Source: an uncultured Phycisphaerales bacterium
Lineage (GTDB): Bacteria; Planctomycetota; Phycisphaerae; Tepidisphaerales; Tepidisphaeraceae
Assembly: GCA_963844715.1 (NCBI GenBank)
Contig: CAWJPJ010000006.1
Span: forward strand, 1,024,001-1,088,000
DNA length: 64,000 nt
Reading direction: 5' to 3'
Shown here: positions 34,716 through 45,452 of the stretch, one piece after another
How the letters are laid out: each line of letters starts with the position of its first letter
How positions within the stretch are numbered: position 1 is the first letter of the stretch
Translations under genes and position numbers: made by a program
The notes under the pieces: generated by a model
The model's database searches: none
The model's input: the letters and a program-made list of their open reading frames with translations, nothing else
What the model was told of the DNA's origin: nothing

Positions 34716-36347
34716 TCAATCGGACGCTTCGATGCCTAAATCTTTCACTTTTTTATTGAGCGTGTTGCGGTTGATTCCGAGAAAATCGGCGGCCTTGGTC
34801 TTGACCCCGCCGCATTTGGCCAGGGCGCGGTCGATGAGGGCGTGCTCGATTTGCTCGATCACCAGGGAGTATATCTCCCCTTCGCGCATTTCGTAATCGG
34901 CGATCGCCTGATCGGCGAGGCGGCGGGTGAGGGTTTCAATGGATTCGCTGGATTGGGCCTGGCGGCGCTGCTGGGCAAAAATGCGGACGCTCAGGGGGAG
35001 CAATTCCTCGTGGAAATCCTCATCCGTGCTGAGGACCACGGCGCGCTCGATGGTGTTTTCCAGTTCGCGGACGTTCCCGGGCCAGGGATAGCGGAGCAGG
35101 ACGTTGAGCATATCGCGGCTGATTCGCCGCAGCTTTCGCTCGTTTTGCGAATTGTATTTATCGAGGAAGAAGTCGATCAGGCGCGGGACGTCTTCGCGGC
35201 GATTGCGTAACGGAGGGAGATAGACGCTGACGACGTTGAGGCGGTAGAAAAGGTCCTCGCGGAAAGCGCCCTTGGCGACTTGTTCCTGGAGATCGACGTT
35301 GGTGGCGGCGATGACTCGGACGTCGACCTTGACGGTTTGCGTGTCGCCGACGCGCTCGAATTCGCGCTCCTGTAGAACGCGCAGAAGCTTGACCTGCAAC
35401 TGGGGCTCGAGGGTGCCGATTTCGTCGAGGAAAATCGTGCCGGCATCGGCGGCCTCGAAGCGGCCCTGTTTGTCGCGGATGGCGCCGGTGAAGGAGCCTT
35501 TGACGTGGCCGAAGAGTTCGCTTTCCAGAAGCGTGCCGCTGAGTGCGCCGCAGTTGACGCGGATGAAGCTTTTGTCCTTGCGGGGGGAGTTATAGTGAAT
35601 CGCCTTGGCGATCATTTCCTTTCCGGTGCCGGTTTCTCCCAAAAGTAAAACCGTCGCGCGGCTGTTGGCGACCTGGCCGACGGTAGCGAAGACTTCGTGC
35701 ATCGCGGGGGAGTCGCCGATGATGTTTTCGAAACGGTAGCGATCGCGCACCTGGGCGCGGAGCTGGGCGTTCTCCTCGAGGAGTTCTTCCTTCTGGCGCA
35801 TCATCATGCGGTTGATTTGAATGGCTTGCGCCAAAAAGGCGGAAATGATTTCCAGGAAAGTTTGATCGCCCTGCAGCGCTTCGGTCGTGGCCAGCGGTTT
35901 GTCGACGGAAAGGGCCCCGGCGGTGCGGCCTTCGATCTTAATGGGGATGCAGAGGAAGCTCATCGGGGTGCCGGAGTCGGGGGCGAGGCGGCCGGTTTTG
36001 TTGAGGAAATCGGGTTCCAAGCGGACGTCCTGAATAATCCGTGCCCGTCCGGTGGCGACTACGTTCCCGGTAATTCCTTCACCCAAGGCGTACTTGCCGC
36101 GTTCGATGTCTTCGGGGGGGATGCCGACTGCCGCCTCTGTGCGCAGTCGGCCGGAGGAATCATCGAGGAGGACGAGGGCGCCGCGCCGCATATCCAGCTT
36201 TTCTGAAATGATTTGCATCATCTTTCCGAACGCATCGCGGAGATCGAGCGTGGAGGAAAGAATGCGGCCGATCTCCATGAGAATGGCCAATTCCTGTTCA
36301 GAGGAAGCGCGGGGTGCTTGGGAATTAGGCGGCATGGACCCTTCCAT
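34716..36347 (-). CDS. GAF-domain sigma54-dependent activator (NifA-like architecture)
   Basis: GAF 'GEGITGNV', Walker A 'GETGTGKE', 'ESELFGH..GSFTGA', 'FLDEIG', 'WPGNVREL', Fis-type HTH. Confidence 0.92.
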
Positions 36348-36509
36348 GTCTATAATGTACGCAGGAGGAGCGGCGAGGGCAAATTTGCACCCATAAATCG
36401 ATGAAAAGTCTTGAGTAATCGAGATTTGAGTCGCCGCGACGGACTGTCGATAGGGATATTAACGATTTTTCCGCCTGTTAGAAGCGCCGCGGCGGTCGAG
36501 AGCGTGCAT

Positions 36510-37647
36510 ATGTGGTCGTTTTGGCTGATGGCGGCGGGGTTCGGGGCGCTGGGGGCGGCAGGGGCACTCTTTTACCTATTTCGTCAGGTCCGGAGTCAGA
36601 ACGCCGTTCAGCAATCCCTCGCCGAACGCACGGCGACGGTGAATCGGCTTCTAGAGTTTTCCCAAACCATCCAGGGCGCCGGCAAGCCGGATCAAATCTT
36701 TGCGTCTCTTACCCATTACTTGAAATCAGAACTTGGGCTTTGGGGGCTGGTGATCCTGACCAACGAGGCGGATGCCGTGCCGGCGATCGAACTGCGCGGC
36801 GTGGCCCGAGAATTTGATTTCAACAGCGGCGCTGGCGGAGATGGAACCGGCGCTATGCCCGTGCCTGCGTCAGAATCTGCCGCGCGTTTTTAAGCCGGAT
36901 AATTCACCGGTGCGGTGCGGCGTGGATTCGTGTTTGCACTTGCCGACGACTCACGCGGCGTATTGCATTCCGTTCACGATTGGGACGAAGGTTCAGGCCG
37001 TCGCCCACATGGTTCTGCCGGTGCGCATGGAGTGGAACGAGCAGCGCCAGCAACTGGCGCAAACATACATCAACAGCGCACAGTCGGTGCTGACATCGCT
37101 AAACCTGCTGGCGGAGGCCGAAAAACAGTCGATGACGGATGCGCTGACGGGACTGTACAACCGCCGATCAATGGATCAACTGCTTCAGCGCGAAGTGGCG
37201 ATGGCGGAACGATATGGGCATCCGATGTCGCTGGTGATGATCGACCTGGATTACTTCAAGGAGATCAACGACGCGCACGGGCACGCAGCGGGCGATCACA
37301 TGCTTCGCGCGTTTGCGGATTGCGTGCGGATCACGCTGCGGAAGACGGATCTGGCGTTTCGGTATGGGGGAGATGAGTTCGTCATTGCGCTGCCGCAGAC
37401 GCCGCTGTTTCAAGCGCAGCAGGTTGTGCAGAAGCTCCGGCAGGCGTTTTTGTCGGTCGACTTCTCGCACGCCATCACGCATCTGGACAAGAATCCGACC
37501 CTGAGCATTGGGGTCGCCGAGCGGAGCAAGACGGGGAACATATTGACGCTGGCGAGCCTTCTGTCCGCGGCTGATCAAGCGCTTTATAACGCCAAAAACA
37601 GCAATCGGAATTGCGTCCGTGTCTTCGAGCCTCCACAGGCTGCATAA
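36510..37647 (+). CDS. Membrane-anchored diguanylate cyclase, frameshifted
   Basis: N-terminal TM, 'TDALTGLYNRR', 'DLDYFK.IND..GH..GD', I-site RKTD, 'YGGDEF'. Confidence 0.9.
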
Positions 37648-37820
37648 ACGGACCCGCCCAATATCACCTCAAATTGCACTGCAACTGCCGCTTGGCATTA
37701 ATCTTATCCGTCAAATTGAGGCGGATATTTTTGTGTTGCCCATGTAAATTGGTGTAGGATATAGGGCAAGCGTAACTCTTAAGTGGCGGCAGAAGTCCTG
37801 TGGAGACAGGGGGCTTTGCG

Positions 37821-38816
37821 ATGCAAATGGCAGTAGGGCAGGCAGTTTCAGATCGCCCGGTCATGGGCGCATTGCCGGAATTTGAATCGCGCTTCATCGT
37901 TCAATCGTCGGCGATGACCCGCGTTCAACAGGCGGCGAAGGCCGTGGCCACGCGCGCAAGCACCGTGATGCTTCTGGGGGAAACCGGCAGCGGCAAGGAG
38001 ATGCTGGCGCGGTTCGTTCACGAGAATTCCCCGCGGAAAAATCAGCCGTTTATTCCCGTCGACTGCTCGGCGTTGACCGAAACATTATTTGAAAGCCAGC
38101 TATTCGGGCACGTCAAAGGGGCATTCACCGGGGCTGTGCGCGATACCATGGGTTTCGTTCGCGCCGCCGACGGCGGGACGCTTTTTCTGGACGAAGTGGG
38201 CGAATTAACGCTGAATTTACAGGCAAAATTGCTGCGCGTGTTGCAGGAGCGCTGCGTCGTTCCGGTGGGCGGCACGCAGGCGTCTCCCGTTGACGTGCGC
38301 GTGGTCTGCGCCACGAATCGGGATTTGCAGGCGATGGTGGAACAAGAGACGTTTCGCCAGGATCTGTTTTTCCGAATCAACGTGGTGGTGCTGCGGGTTC
38401 CGCCGTTGCGCGAGCGCACGGAAGACATCGTGGCGTTGTCGGAATATTTCCTGGCGCGGCAGGCGGGGATGAGCCAGGAGCCGCGGAAATCTCTGCATCC
38501 CGACGCGGTGCAAAGCCTGATCAAATACAACTGGCCGGGGAACATCCGCGAGCTTTTCAATGTTTTGGAGCACGGGCACATCATGTCGCTGGGCCCGGTC
38601 GTTGAGTTAAGCGATTTGCCTCCCCCACTGAGCAATTCCGGGTTTGCGGGGCGCGTTCATGCGTCGGAGTTGAATCTCCAGCGGCTGGAGCGGAATGCGA
38701 TCATCGAAGCGTTGAAGCGCACGCGATTTAACCGCGCGGCGGCATGCCGTCTTTTGGGAATTGAGGCGCGTCGCTTGAATCGCCGAATTCTCGCCTTGCG
38801 CATCCCCCTGCCCTAG
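37821..38816 (+). CDS. sigma54-dependent activator (bEBP) without N-terminal sensor domain
   Basis: AAA+ domain begins after about 20 aa; 'GETGSGKE', intact GAFTGA, 'FLDEVG', 'WPGNIREL', C-terminal HTH. Confidence 0.92.
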   Translation: MQMAVGQAVSDRPVMGALPEFESRFIVQSSAMTRVQQAAKAVATRASTVMLLGETGSGKEMLARFVHENSPRKNQPFIPVDCSALTETLFESQLFGHVKGAFTGAVRDTMGFVRAADGGTLFLDEVGELTLNLQAKLLRVLQERCVVPVGGTQASPVDVRVVCATNRDLQAMVEQETFRQDLFFRINVVVLRVPPLRERTEDIVALSEYFLARQAGMSQEPRKSLHPDAVQSLIKYNWPGNIRELFNVLEHGHIMSLGPVVELSDLPPPLSNSGFAGRVHASELNLQRLERNAIIEALKRTRFNRAAACRLLGIEARRLNRRILALRIPLP

Positions 38817-38868
38817 CCCATCTTACTATTTCTCGCGTTTTCAATCAGGTTATAATACGAGGGCGCGG

Positions 38869-39070
38869 CCAAAATGGTATTTTTCCGCCATATCCATTTA
38901 TAATCAAACAAGTTACGCGATCATCATACCCCCCACCACCCACCATTATGGCCGGTCGCGGTGCTTTGTTTGAATTTGAATGCAAAGGGCAATGCCAGCC
39001 ATAACCGTATTTATTTAGGGCACTTAGCATCAGATCGACGGACCTAATTTTAGGCGGCACGCGGTTCGTT
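38869..39070 (+). promoter_or_regulatory. sigma54-like promoter region, copy 1 (enhancer palindrome, IHF-like tracts, -24/-12-like box)
   Basis: CCAAAATGG 38869; ACC-CA-CCA-TTA-TGG-CC-GGT 38938-38956; CGGCACGCGGTTCGTT 39055-39070 (-12 is GT rather than GC); spacing matches copy 2. Confidence 0.65.
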
Positions 39071-39401
39071 ATAGCTTCCCGCGTAAGGCAGCGCCCATGA
39101 GCTAGGGCCATAAGGCTCTGTCCCTGTTGGGTGCGGATGCTTGCTCGATGGTGAGCTGGCATCGGGTGCTGCGGTAAGTGGATGGGTCGATCGCCGTAGC
39201 AGTTTTGATCGAATCCCAATTTGTTGTTCAGCCGTGTTCAGGGAGTCCCCCGCTGCGCGAGCCGCATGCCTAGAGCAGTGGCTTCGTTGTGGGTGTTGTG
39301 TGTACCGCCGGGAATTGTGCGGGGTGAGGTCCCCGTGATTTTCGGCGGAATTCGGAGTGGTGAAATAAGACAAGTCCCCTAACGGGGCCGAGGAGAGAAT
39401 C

Positions 39402-40745
39402 ATGAGTATCGTGGAGTCAACGAAGTCGAAGACACCCCGTATTACGCGACTTGAAGCCGTTGCCGGCGGAGCAATCATTGCTGCCGCCGTTTTCGCGGCT
39501 GCTCCGAAGTTCGCGTCCGCTCAATCCATTCAAATGCAGGTTTCGGGCGGCACCACGACCGACCCCACGGCCGCTGGCGCACTGACTTGGTTCAATACCT
39601 CGAACTGGAATAATGCCGGTGTTACCGGGACCCTTCCGGAAAGCGACACGGGCTCGCTCACCGCGCAAAACATCGCACCGGATAACGCCACGATGCCATC
39701 GGTGGGCTTGGTGTTTGATCCGGTCAACGACCCCAACGCGGCAGGACTTGGCGGTAACGCATATGTGGCGAACTTGGACGAGATTTCCGGTTCGACCTAT
39801 ATCGCTTCGGTTGCAGGAACTTATGCCGCTCCGGCAAAGCTCACGATCGAAAGCGGCACCCTCATCGCCGGCACAGCCACGGTTGGGCGCGATAGTCAGG
39901 GAATCCTGGCTCTCAACGGCGGAGCGTTCCTCACCGTCGGCTCAATCAAAATCCAAGGCACAAACAAGGCCGTTACGGCTATTGGTACTGGGACCTTCGA
40001 ATATCACGGAGGAACATTAGATGCCGAACAGGGCATCCAGCTCGGCTCGGGCGCTTGCAGTACGGGTCTAACCAAGACTTCAGCCGGTGTCGGCTACTTC
40101 ACGGTCTACAACGATGGCCCCGCCGGCGCGATTCTCAGCCAGAACGGTTTCCAGATCGCCACCAACACCAACCAGGCGGGCACGATCGGAATTGTTGAAT
40201 TCCACTATGACATCAACACGGGTGGAATCGGCGGAACCCGCCCGATCCAAACCAACGTGGACCAGGGCAACGGCGAAACCGGTCAGGGCATCCTGCACAT
40301 CCAAAATAACACCAACAATTCGGCGCGATTGAACCTTGTTCTTGACGCGGCGCCGAGCGTCATCGGCGGCCTCGTGCAGAATCTGGGCCTGTTCGATGAC
40401 ACCGTCATCTCGGGCTCCGGCACGTATCCGAAGGCCTTCTATTCAGTGGATGGCACGACGGTATTCACGCAAGGCGCCACCATCACGGCGGCATACATGG
40501 GCACGTCGTATAGCTGGACGATCAGCTATAGCGGGCAGATCAACTTCACGAATACGGCCACGTCAGGCTACGACTCGTCGGGAATCGATGCGGTTGGCGG
40601 CAACGACGTGGTACTGATCGGATTGCCGTCGGGCGGCGCTCCGCCGATCCCGGAACCGACCAGCTTGGCGCTACTCGGTGGCGCGGGCGGGATGATTATG
40701 GCCCGTCGCAGAAACAGGAAAGAAAACCAGGCCCCCAAAGCGTAA
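39402..40745 (+). CDS. PEP-CTERM sorting domain surface protein
   Basis: RBS GAGGAG; signal peptide ending 'ASA-Q'; G/T/N/S-rich body; C-terminal 'IPEPTSLALLGGAGGMIMARRRNRK'. Confidence 0.93.
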   Translation: MSIVESTKSKTPRITRLEAVAGGAIIAAAVFAAAPKFASAQSIQMQVSGGTTTDPTAAGALTWFNTSNWNNAGVTGTLPESDTGSLTAQNIAPDNATMPSVGLVFDPVNDPNAAGLGGNAYVANLDEISGSTYIASVAGTYAAPAKLTIESGTLIAGTATVGRDSQGILALNGGAFLTVGSIKIQGTNKAVTAIGTGTFEYHGGTLDAEQGIQLGSGACSTGLTKTSAGVGYFTVYNDGPAGAILSQNGFQIATNTNQAGTIGIVEFHYDINTGGIGGTRPIQTNVDQGNGETGQGILHIQNNTNNSARLNLVLDAAPSVIGGLVQNLGLFDDTVISGSGTYPKAFYSVDGTTVFTQGATITAAYMGTSYSWTISYSGQINFTNTATSGYDSSGIDAVGGNDVVLIGLPSGGAPPIPEPTSLALLGGAGGMIMARRRNRKENQAPKA

Positions 40746-40764
40746 AGCGCTGGCAGGTCTGAGC

Positions 40765-40826
40765 TAAAACTCTCCGCTACACCCCCGGCTCCTACCCTAC
40801 AATGCCCCGGGGGTTTTTTATGCGCC
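40765..40826 (+). terminator. Intrinsic terminator / direct repeat copy 1 (62 bp)
   Basis: Stem ACCCCCGG/CCGGGGGT, 18-nt C-rich loop, T tract; identical to 41164-41226 except T-run length. Confidence 0.9.
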
Positions 40827-40867
40827 GAGTTCGCCCCAAGTTTGAAGGCGCTTATGGGACCGGGTTA

Positions 40868-41068
40868 CCAAAGTAGTATGCTATTCGTCTATCCATATTG
40901 ATAACAAGGACTTAAATATCAAAATCACATATGTCCACCTACCAAAATGGCGGGTCTGGGCACGAGGTGAAGAATATAGAACCAGCAGTCTGATTGTTAT
41001 AACAGATGATTTGATAGGAAGTTAAAGAATTAATTGCCGATAGAAACAGCCGCGGCACGCAGTTAGCT
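40868..41068 (+). promoter_or_regulatory. sigma54-like promoter region, copy 2
   Basis: CCAAAGTAG 40868; IHF-like TAACAAGGACTTA; ACC-TA-CCA-AAA-TGG-CG-GGT 40937-40955; CGGCACGCAGTTAGCT 41053-41068 (GG-N10-GC). Confidence 0.7.
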
Positions 41069-41078
41069 GTTCATCGGG

Positions 41079-41219
41079 TGACCTAGTGGCTGCGGTGTTC
41101 GAAAGGACCCGCAGATTTGAAGATGAAAGCCGTCGTTGCCGAGTAAGGTGGCCACCGGCAGTTTAAAACTCTCCGCTACACCCCCGGCTCCTACCCTACA
41201 ATGCCCCGGGGGTTTTTTT
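41079..41219 (+). ncRNA. Putative sigma54-dependent small RNA (~140 nt)
   Basis: Lies between a sigma54 box and a terminator; GAAA-tetraloop hairpin 41090-41114; only a 7-codon ORF inside. Confidence 0.55.
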
Positions 41220-41226
41220 ATGCGCC
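41164..41226 (+). terminator. Intrinsic terminator / direct repeat copy 2 (63 bp)
   Basis: TAAAACTCTCCGCTACACCCCCGGCTCCTACCCTACAATGCCCCGGGGG(T)nATGCGCC. Confidence 0.9.
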
Positions 41227-41248
41227 CGCCGAGAAGCAGCGCGAGGGT

Positions 41249-43441
41249 TTACTGGCCGATCTTGACGTAGTCTCTCCAAAACTCGCGATAGGCGCCCTCG
41301 ATGGCACGCACGAATCCAGGCACGTCCGTCAGGGGTGAGCTGCGCATTCTTTCCCGCAAGCTTGCGCGGAGGGCGGGAAGGCGCGGGAGGTCATTTGCCC
41401 AGGCGTCGGCGAGGCGGACGAACTCGGATTCGTCGGCAGCGGCCAGATCAGTCAGTTGCAAATTGCTCAATTGACTCAAGCCGGCACGCCCCACGCTGGT
41501 CTTGCCCACAAGCGTCAACACGGGGACGCCCATCCAATAAGAGTCGAGGCTCGTGGTATGACCGTTGTAAGGCAAGGTATCCAATCCGAGATCGATCCGC
41601 TGATAGGTCTGGAGGTATTGCCGGCGGGGCTGCTGAGGAACGAATTCGATGCGATCCTGGCCGAGCTGGCGAAGAACCGTCTCGCGCGCGGAACCGGGCG
41701 GGGCCATGAGGAGGATCCGCGAATCTGGAATTTGATCGAGAACGGTTTTCCACCTCCGCAGGGTTTCGGGTGTGACTTTGCAGAAGTTGTTCAGGCAGCC
41801 AAAAGTTAGGCGCCCGGATGAAATGGCCGGGAGGGGACCGACGTCCGGACCATCAAGCACGTCCATCGACTTGGGATCGTAACACCAAAAACTGTGTGGG
41901 AGCCGATGGACTTTTTCCGCGTAATGGCTGTCGGTTCGCCCGGCGGGATCGAGGTAGGGGTCGCTGAGGCGCCAGTCGATTGTTTCGAGGCCGGTGCCGC
42001 CGGGATAGCCGCCGAAGGTGACTTGGATTGGGGCGGGCTTGCGAGCGAAGAGAGGCAAGCGATTTCCCGCTGATTGCCCGGCCAGATCGACGAGAATATC
42101 GATCTTGTCGGCGCGGATCGTTCGTTCGGCGGTTTCGTCGTCCATCAGCTGGATATTCCGCCAGGCGACAGCAGCGGCGGAAACCTTTTGCGTGACGGAA
42201 TCGACTCTGGGGGAATTGGAATAGCAATAGGCCTGGATGGATAGGCGGTCGTGTCCGGTAATCAGCGGCAGGAGATTTCTTCCGACAGGATGGTCGCGGA
42301 AGTCGGCGGAGACGTAGCCGACGCGAAGGACCCGCTCGGGATGGCGATCGTTATCATGGGGGCGGGCCAGCGCCTTGAGCGGCGCGGCGTGCAGTTGAGA
42401 CCAGCGCTTGGCTTCGGCGAGAATCGCGGCGGGATCGTCGTGCGAATAATGCAGGGAAAAGACGAGATTGCCGTGGTACTCGGTGTCGGCGGGCGCAAGG
42501 GCCATGGCTCGGCGATAGCAATCTTCGGATTCGGCCAGGCGGCCGAGTTGTCGCAGGGCGTTGCCGAGATTATTGAATGCTGGGGCGAAATTTGGGCGGA
42601 GGTGGATCGCTTTGTTGCACGCCTCGACGGCGCCGTCGGGATCATTCTGATCGCATAGAGCATTTCCGAGATTGTTGAGGGCCTCGGGATAATCCGGGCG
42701 CACGCCGAGCGCTTTGCGATAGCTTTCGATGGCTTCGCGGACTTTGCCAATGGTGCGAAGGGCGATGCCGAGGTTGTAATGGGCGTCGGCCAGTTGAGGA
42801 TCGAGTTCAACGGCGCGGCGATACTCGGCAATGGCTTCGTCGAATTTGGCGGTGTTTCTCAGGGCTTCGCCCAGGTTGTTATGTCCGGCGGCGAAATTGG
42901 GGGCGATGGTGAGGAGCTTGCGGTAAGTTGAGATGGCGCGGGGGAGGTCTCCCTTGGACATCAGGGCGGCGGCGAGATTATTCAGGGCCTCGGGGTAATC
43001 CGGGCGGAGGGTGAGGGCCTGCTCGAATTCGGCGATGGCTTCATCGGGGTTCCCCGATGAGGCGAGGGCCACGCCGAGGTTGTACGCCAGTTGCGGGACG
43101 CGCGGGTGACGGACGATTGCCTTTCGCAAAACTTCGATTGCGCGGTCGAACTGACCGGTGGAGAGCAGGGCGTTGCCTAGATTGTTGCACGCCGAGGCGG
43201 ATGCGGGATCGATTGCCACGGCCCGCTCGAACTCGGCGACGGCGGCGGTTTTCTGGCCGGATTGAATCAGTAGAATCGCCAGTTCCTGAATGACGTCGGC
43301 ATCTCGCGGCTTGAGAGTCAGGGCCTGGCGGAAAAGTTGTTCCGCTTCGCGGATGCGCTCCCCCTGCTGAGCACGGCGGGCTCGCTGAAGAATTTCGTCA
43401 ATGTTGCCGAACGGTTTCAACGCGAAATTCCCTCTTGCCAT
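41249..43441 (-). CDS. TPR-repeat GT41 glycosyltransferase (SPINDLY/OGT-like) 4
   Basis: About 9 TPRs ('NNLGNAL'), 'RVGYVSADFRDHPV', 'DILVDLAG', 'PAPIQ', 'FGCLNNFCK', 'LDTLPYNGHTT'. Confidence 0.93.
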   Translation of the reverse strand: MARGNFALKPFGNIDEILQRARRAQQGERIREAEQLFRQALTLKPRDADVIQELAILLIQSGQKTAAVAEFERAVAIDPASASACNNLGNALLSTGQFDRAIEVLRKAIVRHPRVPQLAYNLGVALASSGNPDEAIAEFEQALTLRPDYPEALNNLAAALMSKGDLPRAISTYRKLLTIAPNFAAGHNNLGEALRNTAKFDEAIAEYRRAVELDPQLADAHYNLGIALRTIGKVREAIESYRKALGVRPDYPEALNNLGNALCDQNDPDGAVEACNKAIHLRPNFAPAFNNLGNALRQLGRLAESEDCYRRAMALAPADTEYHGNLVFSLHYSHDDPAAILAEAKRWSQLHAAPLKALARPHDNDRHPERVLRVGYVSADFRDHPVGRNLLPLITGHDRLSIQAYCYSNSPRVDSVTQKVSAAAVAWRNIQLMDDETAERTIRADKIDILVDLAGQSAGNRLPLFARKPAPIQVTFGGYPGGTGLETIDWRLSDPYLDPAGRTDSHYAEKVHRLPHSFWCYDPKSMDVLDGPDVGPLPAISSGRLTFGCLNNFCKVTPETLRRWKTVLDQIPDSRILLMAPPGSARETVLRQLGQDRIEFVPQQPRRQYLQTYQRIDLGLDTLPYNGHTTSLDSYWMGVPVLTLVGKTSVGRAGLSQLSNLQLTDLAAADESEFVRLADAWANDLPRLPALRASLRERMRSSPLTDVPGFVRAIEGAYREFWRDYVKIGQ

Positions 43442-45452
43442 GCGCGGCGAAAGGCGGACTCAACATCGGCGGCAAAGGCGCGGGCGTCGAGCAACCGCGA
43501 GGCGCGCATTTTTTCTCGGAGCGAGGGACGCAACTCCTCCAGACCGGTCATGGCGGCGGCCTTTTTCACGTATTCATCTTCGGAGCCAGCGGCCAGTTCC
43601 GCTAGCCCGAGATTTGTCAGCAAGCTGAGTCCGACGCGGCTGGCGTGAGTTTTGCCGGTCAATGTTACGACGGGAACGCCCATCCAGATCGCCTCGCAGG
43701 TTGTGGTTGTGCCGTTATAAGGATAGGTATCCAGGGCGATGTCCATCTCGGCATAGGTTTGCAAATGCTGGTGAATGGATGGGGATTTGCCGCGGAGATC
43801 GATGCGCGCGGGGTTGATGCCGACGGATGTAAAACGATGGAGAAATTCCGCCCTTGCTTCCGAGTCGCTCAATCCGGCGTTCTTGATCAGCAAACGGCTG
43901 TTGGGAACGGACTGGAGAATCCGAATCCATAGATCTGTCACCTTTTGATTCATTTTGGCCAGGTTGTTGAATGAACCGAAGGTGATGAAGCCGTTGCGCT
44001 TGGCGGGTTGCGGTGAGACTTCCGGCGCATCGGATGGGGGTTGATAGCAGACAAAGCTGTGCGGCAATCGGAGGAGTTTCTCACTGTAATATCCCTCGGT
44101 CATTCCGGGGGGATCGGCGTGGAAGTCCGTGAGGCGGTAATCCATGACGGAGAGACCCGTCGTGTCGGGACAGCCGAGGTAGGTGAATTGAACGGGAGCG
44201 GGTTTGCGGGCGAAGACGAGGAGGCGGTTGCCTGCGGTGTGGCCGGCCAAATCAACGAGGATGTCGATCTTATCCGCGCGGATCATGTCGGAAAGATTTT
44301 GATCGGTGACTCCTGTCGTGTCGCGCCAGTGGTGGACGAGTTTTTTCAATCGCGCTGTCGTCGCGTCACCTTTTAGCAAATCGGCATAGGCAAAAGTCTC
44401 CACCTGGTTCCGATCGTGACCGGCGAGGAGGCTTTCGATGAAGAATCCTACGGAGTGCTCACGGAAATCGGGGGAAACATAGCCAACGCGCAATCTTCGG
44501 TTGGGATCGCGATCAACATCGTAGGGATTAATCTGAGTTGCCAAGGGTTTGGCAAAGCGATCATTCCATTTTTGATGCTCGGCGAAAATTTCGCCGGGTC
44601 GGGGTCGGGAAGAAAATGCAGGGCCCAGAGAAGATTGTCGGCGGCGGGTGGATAGTTTTCCGCGCCGGAACGAATCAATGGCCTCGGGGATGTGGTTCAT
44701 ACCGAGGAGGGCGTTTCCTAGATTTGAATAAGCCTCGGCAAAATCAGGTCGCAAGCTGATCGCGCCCGTGCACGCGGCCGCGGATTCATGGAAACGGGCG
44801 GCGATGGAGAGGCTGTTCCCGAGATTGCTAAACGCCTCGGCAAAATCCGGCTTGATGGCGATCGCCTGGCGGTAGATTTCGATGGCTTCTTCGGTTTTTC
44901 CCTGACGCTCCAGGGCGCCAGCGAGATTATTCAGGGCCTGGGGATGGGGGCCAATGGCGGCGGTTTTGCGGAAATTTTCGACGGCGCCGTCCCAGTCGCC
45001 GGTGGCCCGATAGGCATCGGCCAGATTGTAGTACGAACCCGCGTCGTCCTTGTTGTATTGGATCGCGCTGCGGTAGGCGGAAATTGCCCCTTTCCAATCG
45101 GTCATCGCGCCCAGGGCGCAGCCGAGGTTAAACCAGGCCTGGGACCAATCGGACCGAATGGCAATGGCGCGGCGGCATGCCGCTGCCGCCTCAGCGGGCG
45201 CGAGAGGGCAAGAAGCACGACCGCGAGATTCAACTGGAAATCGGCGCGGCGCGGATCGATTGATGCGGCCCGCTCGAGCGGAGGCAGGGCTTCTCGCGCT
45301 CGCGCGGTTTGAAAAAGGAGAGTCCCGAGGAGATGGAGAGCCTGCGGGTCGTTGGGTTTTTCGGAGATTGCTTTTCTATAAAGCGTCTCGGCCTGGTCGA
45401 GGCGTCCGGCCTGGTGATGGGCGGCGGCGAGGGTGAGTGATTCGCTGGTCAT
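43417..45452 (-). CDS. TPR-repeat GT41 glycosyltransferase (SPINDLY/OGT-like) 3, frameshifted
   Basis: TPRs; 'RVGYVSPDFREHSV', 'DLAGHT', 'FGSFNNLAK', 'LDTYPYNGTTTTCEA.WMGVP'. Confidence 0.92.

Follow-up and report, generated by a model that had tools for sequence, protein, structure and literature searches.

What is encoded in the short plus-strand interval that follows a PEP-CTERM surface-protein gene in an uncultured Phycisphaerales bacterium of the family Tepidisphaeraceae (Planctomycetota), and how does it relate to the gene whose 3′ end it shares? We examined this interval, here called unit 2, within a 64,000-nucleotide (nt) window, the whole stretch of DNA analyzed (contig C6:1024001-1088000 of genome G000, which comprises 4.55 Mb in 8 contigs with 59% G+C and is 85% complete). 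On the plus strand, a GGDEF gene is followed by a gene for a sigma-54 activator (a bacterial enhancer-binding protein, bEBP), promoter region 1, a 321-nt leader, the PEP-CTERM gene, and the first copy of a 3′ module. Unit 2 then consists of promoter region 2, approximately 85 nt of structured sequence, and the second module copy, and it faces a convergent TPR/GT41 gene (Table 1). An earlier note on this DNA had described an activator followed by two plus-strand units of like build, a layout that the sequence bears out. With a confidence only slightly above even, we favor the reading that unit 2 (41079-41226) is a small noncoding RNA (sRNA) gene with a predicted sigma-54 promoter, switched on together with the PEP-CTERM gene by the neighboring activator.

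The two units resemble each other at both ends. A 55-nt direct repeat at 40765-40819 and 41164-41218 is 100% identical between them and extends to approximately 62 nt if one T indel is allowed, in agreement with the 62-bp 3′ module that the note had assigned to both units. When both copies were compared by blastn with the whole 4.55-Mb genome, only chance matches of 15 to 20 nt were found elsewhere. When 38840-39110 was compared without gaps with the sequence 1,999 nt downstream, 101 of 271 positions matched (93 of 271 at offset 1,998), versus 65 to 85 at 16 other offsets. These matches are confined to collinear blocks (CCAAAaTgGTAT, TATCCAT, CCACCyACCAwwATGGCsGGTC, ATAAC, and GCGGCACGCrGTT), and the similarity is therefore block-wise rather than overall; it is in this form that the twin promoters of the earlier note hold up.

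The blocks include predicted activator-binding boxes and −24/−12 elements. Promoter 1 has its distal box at −187 and, after a gap of 10 nt, a half-degenerate partner to it. Across the G000 genome, 87 strict CCAWWWTGG boxes were found, and the sole cluster of at least two within 150 nt is that of unit 1. The pattern GGCAC-N5-T[ACT]G[CT] occurs at 182 sites genome-wide, and a box lies at most 260 nt upstream in three of them: units 1 and 2 (boxes at −113 and −112) and one intragenic site (box at −161). A looser combined pattern was found at three places in G000 (both units and one other) and at five in the congeneric genome G001 (both units included), whereas the reversed control gave 0 to 1 per strand. 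Judged by the sigma-54 consensus TGGCAC-N5-TTGCW, in which the GG and GC dinucleotides stand 10 nt apart, the unit 2 element has GG-N10-GC, and the unit 1 element keeps the G but has the C replaced (TCGT); both read GG-N10-G(C/T). The transcription starts that follow from these elements are the ones previously predicted, near 39081 and 41079. A gene for the sigma factor itself, rpoN, is present in G000 (PF04552 match of 202 bits in a 511-aa [amino acid] open frame).

Related promoters keep much of this arrangement. Distal boxes fall between −183 and −210 in 6 of 8 related promoters, and proximal boxes between −112 and −117 in 5 of 8. The promoter 1 sequence GGCAYG-N4-TTCGwTATAG recurs in the congeners G001 and G002 and in G004, an unpublished genome; the TCGT variant is kept in the first two, with a near-match in the third. 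Correctly spaced sites also occur at orthologous loci of other genera (TGGCCC-N5-TTGCT in G052 and GGCACG-N4-TCGC in G048). In G052, G048, and G004, the activator gene is followed by approximately 300 nt with a correctly spaced −24/−12 site, a small receiver-like open reading frame (ORF), and a gene for a secreted protein. The arrangement of activator, box, sigma-54 promoter, and secreted-protein gene thus recurs in other genera.

Unit 2 itself has the traits of an sRNA gene: a predicted promoter and terminator of its own, no conserved ORF, and conservation above the neutral level (in one of two congeners and 2 of 121 family genomes). No ORF of at least 40 aa starts inside its body. A small protein was considered and rejected: the mini-ORFs seen by eye, of 7 codons in G000 and 5 in G001, are unrelated, and alignment gaps break their frames. 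The gaps in the G000/G001 alignment are of 2, 3, and 1 nt, and unit 2 therefore has no conserved reading frame. Over positions 36000-43000, which include the leader and unit 2, Rfam gave no match at an E value of ≤1, and no tRNA or transfer-messenger RNA was found. The unit 2 RNAs of both species are predicted to fold into the same three hairpins, with stem-loop 1 formed by CUGCGG/CCGCAG.

We next compared the locus with that of G001, the only relative found to carry unit 2. There, the GGDEF gene is intact and lies on contig C236, which runs on through the activator orthologue and promoter 1 and ends after the leader. Contig C183 holds a different PEP-CTERM paralogue, orthologous to a copy on contig C7 of G000 and preceded by a promoter that looks sigma-70-type; downstream come a first module copy and then unit 2 (promoter 2, a short body, and a second module), which again faces the convergent GT41 gene. 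Between promoter 2 and the second module, where the earlier note had allowed for a full gene in relatives, G001 has the same short unit. Its promoter 2 (TTGGCACatggtTAGCT; TTGGCAC-N5-TAGCT) is closer to the sigma-54 consensus than that of G000 and has boxes at −210, −191, and −117. A metagenome contig (L016), 99% identical to G001 over 1,438 nt, independently confirms this layout. None of its 14 substitutions relative to G001 falls in the boxes, the −24/−12 element, the RNA body, or the modules, and 7 of them, small numbers though these are, fall in the 45 nt that separate the distal from the proximal boxes.

This comparison bears directly on the strongest rival, according to which unit 2 has no function of its own: it would be what remains, as promoter stub and terminator, of a tandem PEP-CTERM unit whose leader and coding region were lost. 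The layout is what duplication plus internal deletion would leave, the distribution is narrow, no pairs covary, and no convincing target emerged. However, the unit has survived since the split of G000 and G001, whose activator genes are only 56% identical at third codon positions and agree at just 45 of 100 four-fold sites. Across unit 2, the spacer upstream of the promoter has decayed to 52% identity (48% when shuffled), whereas the core promoter is 58% and the RNA body 70% identical, the −24/−12 element is intact, and the module core is identical at 55 of 55 positions in both copies of both species. The boxes, moreover, are kept in G001 although its activator gene lies elsewhere, on C236, with no activator gene within 5.7 kb upstream of unit 2 on C183. 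Conservation of the promoter, boxes, stems, and module despite near-saturated synonymous sites supports a maintained and probably co-regulated RNA gene. Because of this pattern, a neutral relic appears improbable, and unit 2 is likely a selected sRNA gene.

The distribution of unit 2 is narrow. A DNA search of 41 genomes matched the unit 2/module part only in G001; a covariance model of the unit 2 RNA gave matches in 2 of 121 family genomes, one being G000 itself; and exact-pattern scans of public genome and metagenome contig collections returned two loci each, all G001-like, with the metagenome loci (L016 and L017) 99 to 100% identical to those of G001. In the congener G002, the GGDEF gene, activator, and promoter 1 (TGGCATgagcTTCGTTATAGC, with boxes shifted to −205 and −183) are followed by a 183-aa receiver-like ORF (PF00072, 26.9 bits, below the cut-off of 30.2), a PEP-CTERM gene, a strong terminator, and the GT41 gene. 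The short unit, the module, and the GT41 neighbor recur in G001, and unit 2 is missing from G002.

A further locus in G001, on contig C8 (L012 555-4443), carries a paralogous short activator (63% identical), a GG-N10-GC site (GGCACGcccTTCGCA), and a 283-aa PEP-CTERM gene. A 66-nt repeat occurs there in three copies (2681, 2980, and 3465), which precede a module-ending stretch, a LuxR-type gene, and the next PEP-CTERM gene, and a third module copy lies at 2870-2930. The design appears to recur here, in that one promoter-like repeat stands before both a PEP-CTERM gene and a short unit ending in the module; this module-ending stretch of 285 nt could equally be a long 3′ untranslated region (UTR). 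No orthologue of the locus was found in the 85%-complete G000 assembly.

We then considered what the module might do. It has an 8-bp stem with seven G-C pairs and a run of 6 to 8 U, but its loop is 18 nt long, and a scan with the intrinsic-terminator consensus (GC-rich stem, 3- to 8-nt loop, and U run) did not call it. Folded module windows reach −15.5 to −17.6 kcal/mol, weak for a terminator, whereas G002 has at the homologous position an ordinary terminator with an 11-bp stem and a 6-nt loop (window, −33.3 kcal/mol). We infer that the module derives from a terminator and has acquired a sequence-constrained flank and loop, and the loop seems to be kept for its sequence. In the third copy, on G001 contig C8, ACTCTCCGCTAC and both hairpin arms are kept, as are the T run and the TGCGC behind it; its loop agrees over the first ten bases (CTCCTACCCT) and differs in the remainder. 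In the two species together, none of the five module copies has lost the flank motif, the opening 10 bases of the loop, or the TGCGC that comes after the T run (window 40820-40832 and 41220-41232; L011 5790-5800 and 6238-6248; L012 2925-2935). Pairing is possible between this TGCGC and the CGC in the flank motif.

On the sRNA reading, helix-turn-helix (HTH) dimers of the activator would bind the boxes and its AAA+ ring would remodel the sigma-54 holoenzyme, giving two transcripts, a 5′-leadered PEP-CTERM mRNA and an RNA of approximately 147 nt. The active part of the RNA would be its invariant CU-rich stretches, ACUCUCCGCUAC before the hairpin and CUCCUACCCU in the 18-nt loop, whose most likely partners would be G-rich or Shine-Dalgarno-like sequences, paired without the help of Hfq; the mRNA 3′ end and the sRNA would thereby carry the same regulatory domain. 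Such a gene may have arisen when a promoter-to-terminator unit was duplicated, lost its leader and coding region, and was retained under selection. A broader proposal, speculative and rather unlikely in our estimation, is that a planctomycete sigma-54 regulon uses the module as a portable regulatory cassette at the 3′ ends of its transcripts. Having evolved from an ordinary terminator by gaining its invariant CU-rich flank and loop, the module would be placed on surface-protein mRNAs and on free sibling RNAs and would act without Hfq as a regulon-wide trans-acting or factor-titrating signal.

A number of observations weigh against the sRNA reading. In the promoters, unit 1 has TCGT instead of TTGC as its −12 element, and unit 2 has a degenerate distal box. 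In the predicted fold, none of 32 consensus pairs shows a compensatory double change (some one-sided changes occur), as only two species carry unit 2, and the fold z-scores are weak (−1.05 and −0.80); the putative structure is thus not provable from two sequences. Unit 2 is absent from G002 despite the same activator/PEP-CTERM locus. Gene conversion between the module copies could keep copy 2 the same as copy 1 if only the latter were under selection, and the retention of TGCGC in all five copies is left unexplained by an RNA that stops at the U run. The target search tells the same way. By duplex energy, the initiation regions of two PEP-CTERM-family paralogues (MSIVES start) rank only 402 and 924 of 2,580 crude starts, which leaves anti-Shine-Dalgarno pairing with these paralogues unsupported as a specific target. 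The best flank target, C6:320475 (−24.0 kcal/mol), was discarded as it lies inside a longer 195-aa ORF and not at a ribosome-binding site. A 9-nt complement to the module flank, through which the leaders of C7-type paralogues pair with the module 1.4 to 2.2 standard deviations better than shuffles do, occurs 51 times in the genome, and these leaders are therefore a weak candidate interaction site. Pairing of the module with the unit 1 leader was no better than with shuffles.

In the leader of the C7-type PEP-CTERM paralogue (C7:598620-598880; L011 3990-4230), tandem GGAGAGU motifs, including the 9-nt complement GCGGAGAGU to the module flank, are kept in G001.

The same features of the module lend themselves to a second rival, in which it is mainly a protein-binding or RNA-stability element on activator-dependent 3′ ends and unit 2 is a decoy or sponge for the bound factor. 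Retention of the flank motif, first loop bases, and TGCGC in every copy is in keeping with this view, as are the unusually large invariant hairpin loop, the failure to find an Hfq gene in the 85%-complete G000 genome, and the lack of a specific base-pairing target. No candidate binding protein was identified, however, and unpaired CU-rich motifs are typical of base-pairing seeds; we consider this explanation quite doubtful. A third possibility, that promoter 2 serves the convergent glycosyltransferase gene through a read-through antisense RNA to its 3′ end or a two-way terminator, draws on the minus-strand stop codon at 41249, only 23 nt from module 2, on the weakness of the hairpin as a terminator, and on the same neighbor in G001 and G002, but it is highly improbable given the run of 7 to 8 U after the stem, the persistence of the gene pair without unit 2 in G002, and the end of the G001 neighbor gene approximately 205 nt beyond the module, by which the close spacing is not conserved.

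Returning to the sRNA reading, we asked what its presumed activator is. The protein consists of AAA+, lid, and HTH domains only, as expected of the sensor-less bEBP named in the earlier note: the PF00158 match (E = 1.6e-67) is preceded by only approximately 25 residues, no N-terminal sensor domain is present, and the translation contains a GAFTGA motif. Its orthologues are also short (86% aa identity, 286/331, in G001; 70% in G002), and short activators 54 to 64% identical to it occur in many genera of the family. Identity with PrsR was ruled out, since the protein has no receiver domain and scores 306.1 bits against TIGR02915 (cut-off, 502.6), covering model positions 141-431 only. PspF was likewise rejected: the architecture without a regulatory domain is alike, but the score lies below the TIGR02974 equivalog cut-off (239.7 versus 443.55 bits). 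No NCBIfam equivalog cut-off was reached, and the closest solved chains are the cores of NifA, NtrC-type, ZraR, and FleQ proteins rather than PspF, a generic bEBP similarity. A paralogous short activator in G000 (C7:703665-704564) contains one in-frame TGA and has unrelated genes downstream.

Conservation of the GGDEF gene upstream of the activator suggests that its input may be cyclic di-GMP. A small receiver-like ORF of approximately 125 to 185 aa stands between a sigma-54-type promoter and a secreted-protein gene in G002 (L039, G002:C4 6199-6750, minus strand) and, in three other genera, at the loci L021, L022 (from an unpublished genome), and L024. At the same place, G000 and G001 have the noncoding leader of approximately 320 nt instead. 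The receiver-like protein of the other loci could be the missing input for a sensor-less activator. Descent of the leader from a decayed receiver gene was rejected: with the receiver-like ORF of G002 as a tblastn query, the leaders of G000 and G001 yielded nothing better than E = 4.2, on the opposite strand.

The gene downstream of promoter 1 was correctly named as PEP-CTERM. It exceeds the TIGR02595 cut-off, falls just below that of Pfam PF07589 (19.3 versus 20.7 bits), and is accompanied in the genome by exosortase genes (PF09721 matches of 146.5 and 123.2 bits). An AlphaFold2 model of the protein, built on a four-sequence alignment, was unusable (mean predicted local distance difference test score [pLDDT], 31.8). 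Three tandem paralogues of the gene lie at C6:344695-348958, with more copies on C7 and C4; neither the module nor the box/sigma-54 promoter was found in any of these C6, C7, and C4 paralogues. The C7 paralogue of G000 ends in a short-loop hairpin (CCCCCGGC...GCCGGGGG).

Among the neighboring genes (Table 1), the GGDEF gene is split here between two overlapping frames (36411-36893 and 36772-37647). Since several other genes of the same assembly, including bEBP genes, are likewise split and the orthologue at the same position in G001 encodes one intact protein of 380 aa, the split is probably an assembly indel error rather than the mark of a pseudogene. Divergent from it at 34716-36347 (minus strand) lies the gene of another sigma-54 activator, one that has a GAF domain at its N terminus; two bEBPs and one diguanylate cyclase are thus clustered in the window. 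On the other side, the TPR/GT41 gene bounds unit 2, and promoter 2 therefore has no gene on its own strand downstream. Two successive TPR and GT41 (O-GlcNAc-transferase-like) genes run convergent to unit 2 at 41249-45105 (minus strand). On C7, a similar gene follows the paralogous PEP-CTERM gene; these glycosyltransferases may have some link to PEP-CTERM proteins.

Table 1. Features of the activator/PEP-CTERM/unit 2 locus (window coordinates)
Feature	Position	Strand	Description
GGDEF diguanylate cyclase gene	36411..37647	+	PF00990, E = 1.8e-46; upstream of activator
Sigma-54 activator (bEBP), 331 aa	37821..38816	+	Sigma54_activat, AAA_lid_14, HTH_8
Distal box pair, promoter 1	38869..38896	+	CCAAAATGG-N10-CCATATCCA; putative activator binding site
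Proximal box, promoter 1	38943..38951	+	CCATTATGG; 113 nt upstream of GGCAC
−24/−12 element, promoter 1	39056..39069	+	GGCACgcggtTCGT; GGCAC-N5-TCGT
Predicted 5′ leader of PEP-CTERM mRNA, 321 nt	39081..39401	+	Good alignment with G001 over first ~160 nt
PEP-CTERM surface-protein gene, 447 aa	39402..40745	+	TIGR02595, 25.6 bits (cut-off, 16); member of paralogue family
3′ module copy 1	40764..40826	+	CU-rich flank, 8-bp hairpin with 18-nt loop, T run
Distal box region, promoter 2, degenerate	40868..40896	+	CCAAAGTAG ... TATCCAT; from block comparison
Proximal box, promoter 2	40942..40950	+	CCAAAATGG; 112 nt upstream of GGCAC
−24/−12 element, promoter 2	41054..41067	+	GGCACgcagtTAGC; GGCAC-N5-TAGC
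Predicted small RNA, ~147 nt	41079..41226	+	Stem-loop 1, A-rich linker, stem-loop 2, CU-rich flank, module hairpin, U run
3′ module copy 2	41164..41226	+	Same repeat; end of unit 2
Convergent TPR/GT41 glycosyltransferase gene	41249..43441	−	Bounds unit 2; same neighbor in G001 and G002

If the sRNA reading is true, the CCAWWWTGG boxes and −24/−12 elements would form a cis-code for a family-wide sensor-less activator of secreted and PEP-CTERM proteins, a nonproteobacterial counterpart of PrsR. Unit 2 would also be a clean case of sRNA gene birth from a duplicated promoter and terminator, and an mRNA and an sRNA with a whole invariant 3′ domain in common would give 3′UTR-based regulation a new twist. 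The restriction to two uncultured species limits the immediate value of these prospects. To our knowledge, small RNAs and sigma-54 regulons are almost undescribed in Planctomycetota; searches of full-text literature, with subscription journals outside the coverage, returned no paper that treats Planctomycetes together with sigma-54 and sRNA, or Tepidisphaera together with PEP-CTERM and RpoN. To call the whole an undescribed module, as the earlier note did, is nonetheless an overstatement, given that bEBP-driven sRNAs and sensor-less bEBPs are already known kinds.

How, then, does the locus compare with these known systems? Sigma-54/PrsR control of proteobacterial PEP-CTERM genes, on which the note had drawn, is in print: a conserved motif with a sigma-54 site precedes these genes and has a phylogenetic profile matching that of PrsR (PMC1569441), and that report describes the motif as confined to Proteobacteria. 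DVUA0057 is described as binding PEP-CTERM gene regions by DNA affinity purification on chip (DAP-chip) (PMC3333781). Like the PrsR/PrsK system, the present locus has a PEP-CTERM unit of one gene, preceded by a long intergenic region with an activator motif and a putative sigma-54 site; unlike it, the local activator lacks a receiver domain and scores below the TIGR02915 cut-off, and the local motif consists of CCAWWWTGG boxes.

bEBPs without a regulatory domain form a known class that includes PspF and HrpR/HrpS. The local activator resembles them in having AAA+ and HTH domains only, and would therefore be controlled via a partner, a ligand on the AAA+ domain, or its expression level; it differs from PspF in its equivalog score and its closest solved chains.

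For the predicted RNA, the nearest parallels are bEBP-dependent sRNAs: the LuxO/Qrr system, which is described as dependent on sigma-54, with its set Qrr1-5, CrcZ with CbrB, and GlmY with GlrR. Like these, unit 2 would be a short noncoding gene with a putative −24/−12 promoter, upstream activator sites, and a putative intrinsic terminator, located near an activator gene and presumably co-regulated with protein-coding genes as they are with their targets. It has no sequence or Rfam relation to them, belongs to the Planctomycetota, and has an activator without a receiver domain and a genome in which no Hfq gene was found. It further differs in having its entire 3′ module in common with an mRNA of the same predicted regulon. 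DapZ and GcvB exemplify an sRNA borne on a 3′UTR that shares its seed with a stand-alone sRNA, and RsaE/RoxS are sRNAs with C-rich loops. As in these cases, an mRNA 3′ end and a free RNA here carry the same presumed motif, and unpaired C/U-rich motifs lie beside or inside a presumed terminator hairpin; unlike in DapZ and GcvB, the role of the RNA is predicted, and the whole 62-nt 3′ end is identical rather than the seed alone. The unusual trait of this locus is thus an invariant CU-rich 3′ module common to an mRNA and a predicted sRNA.

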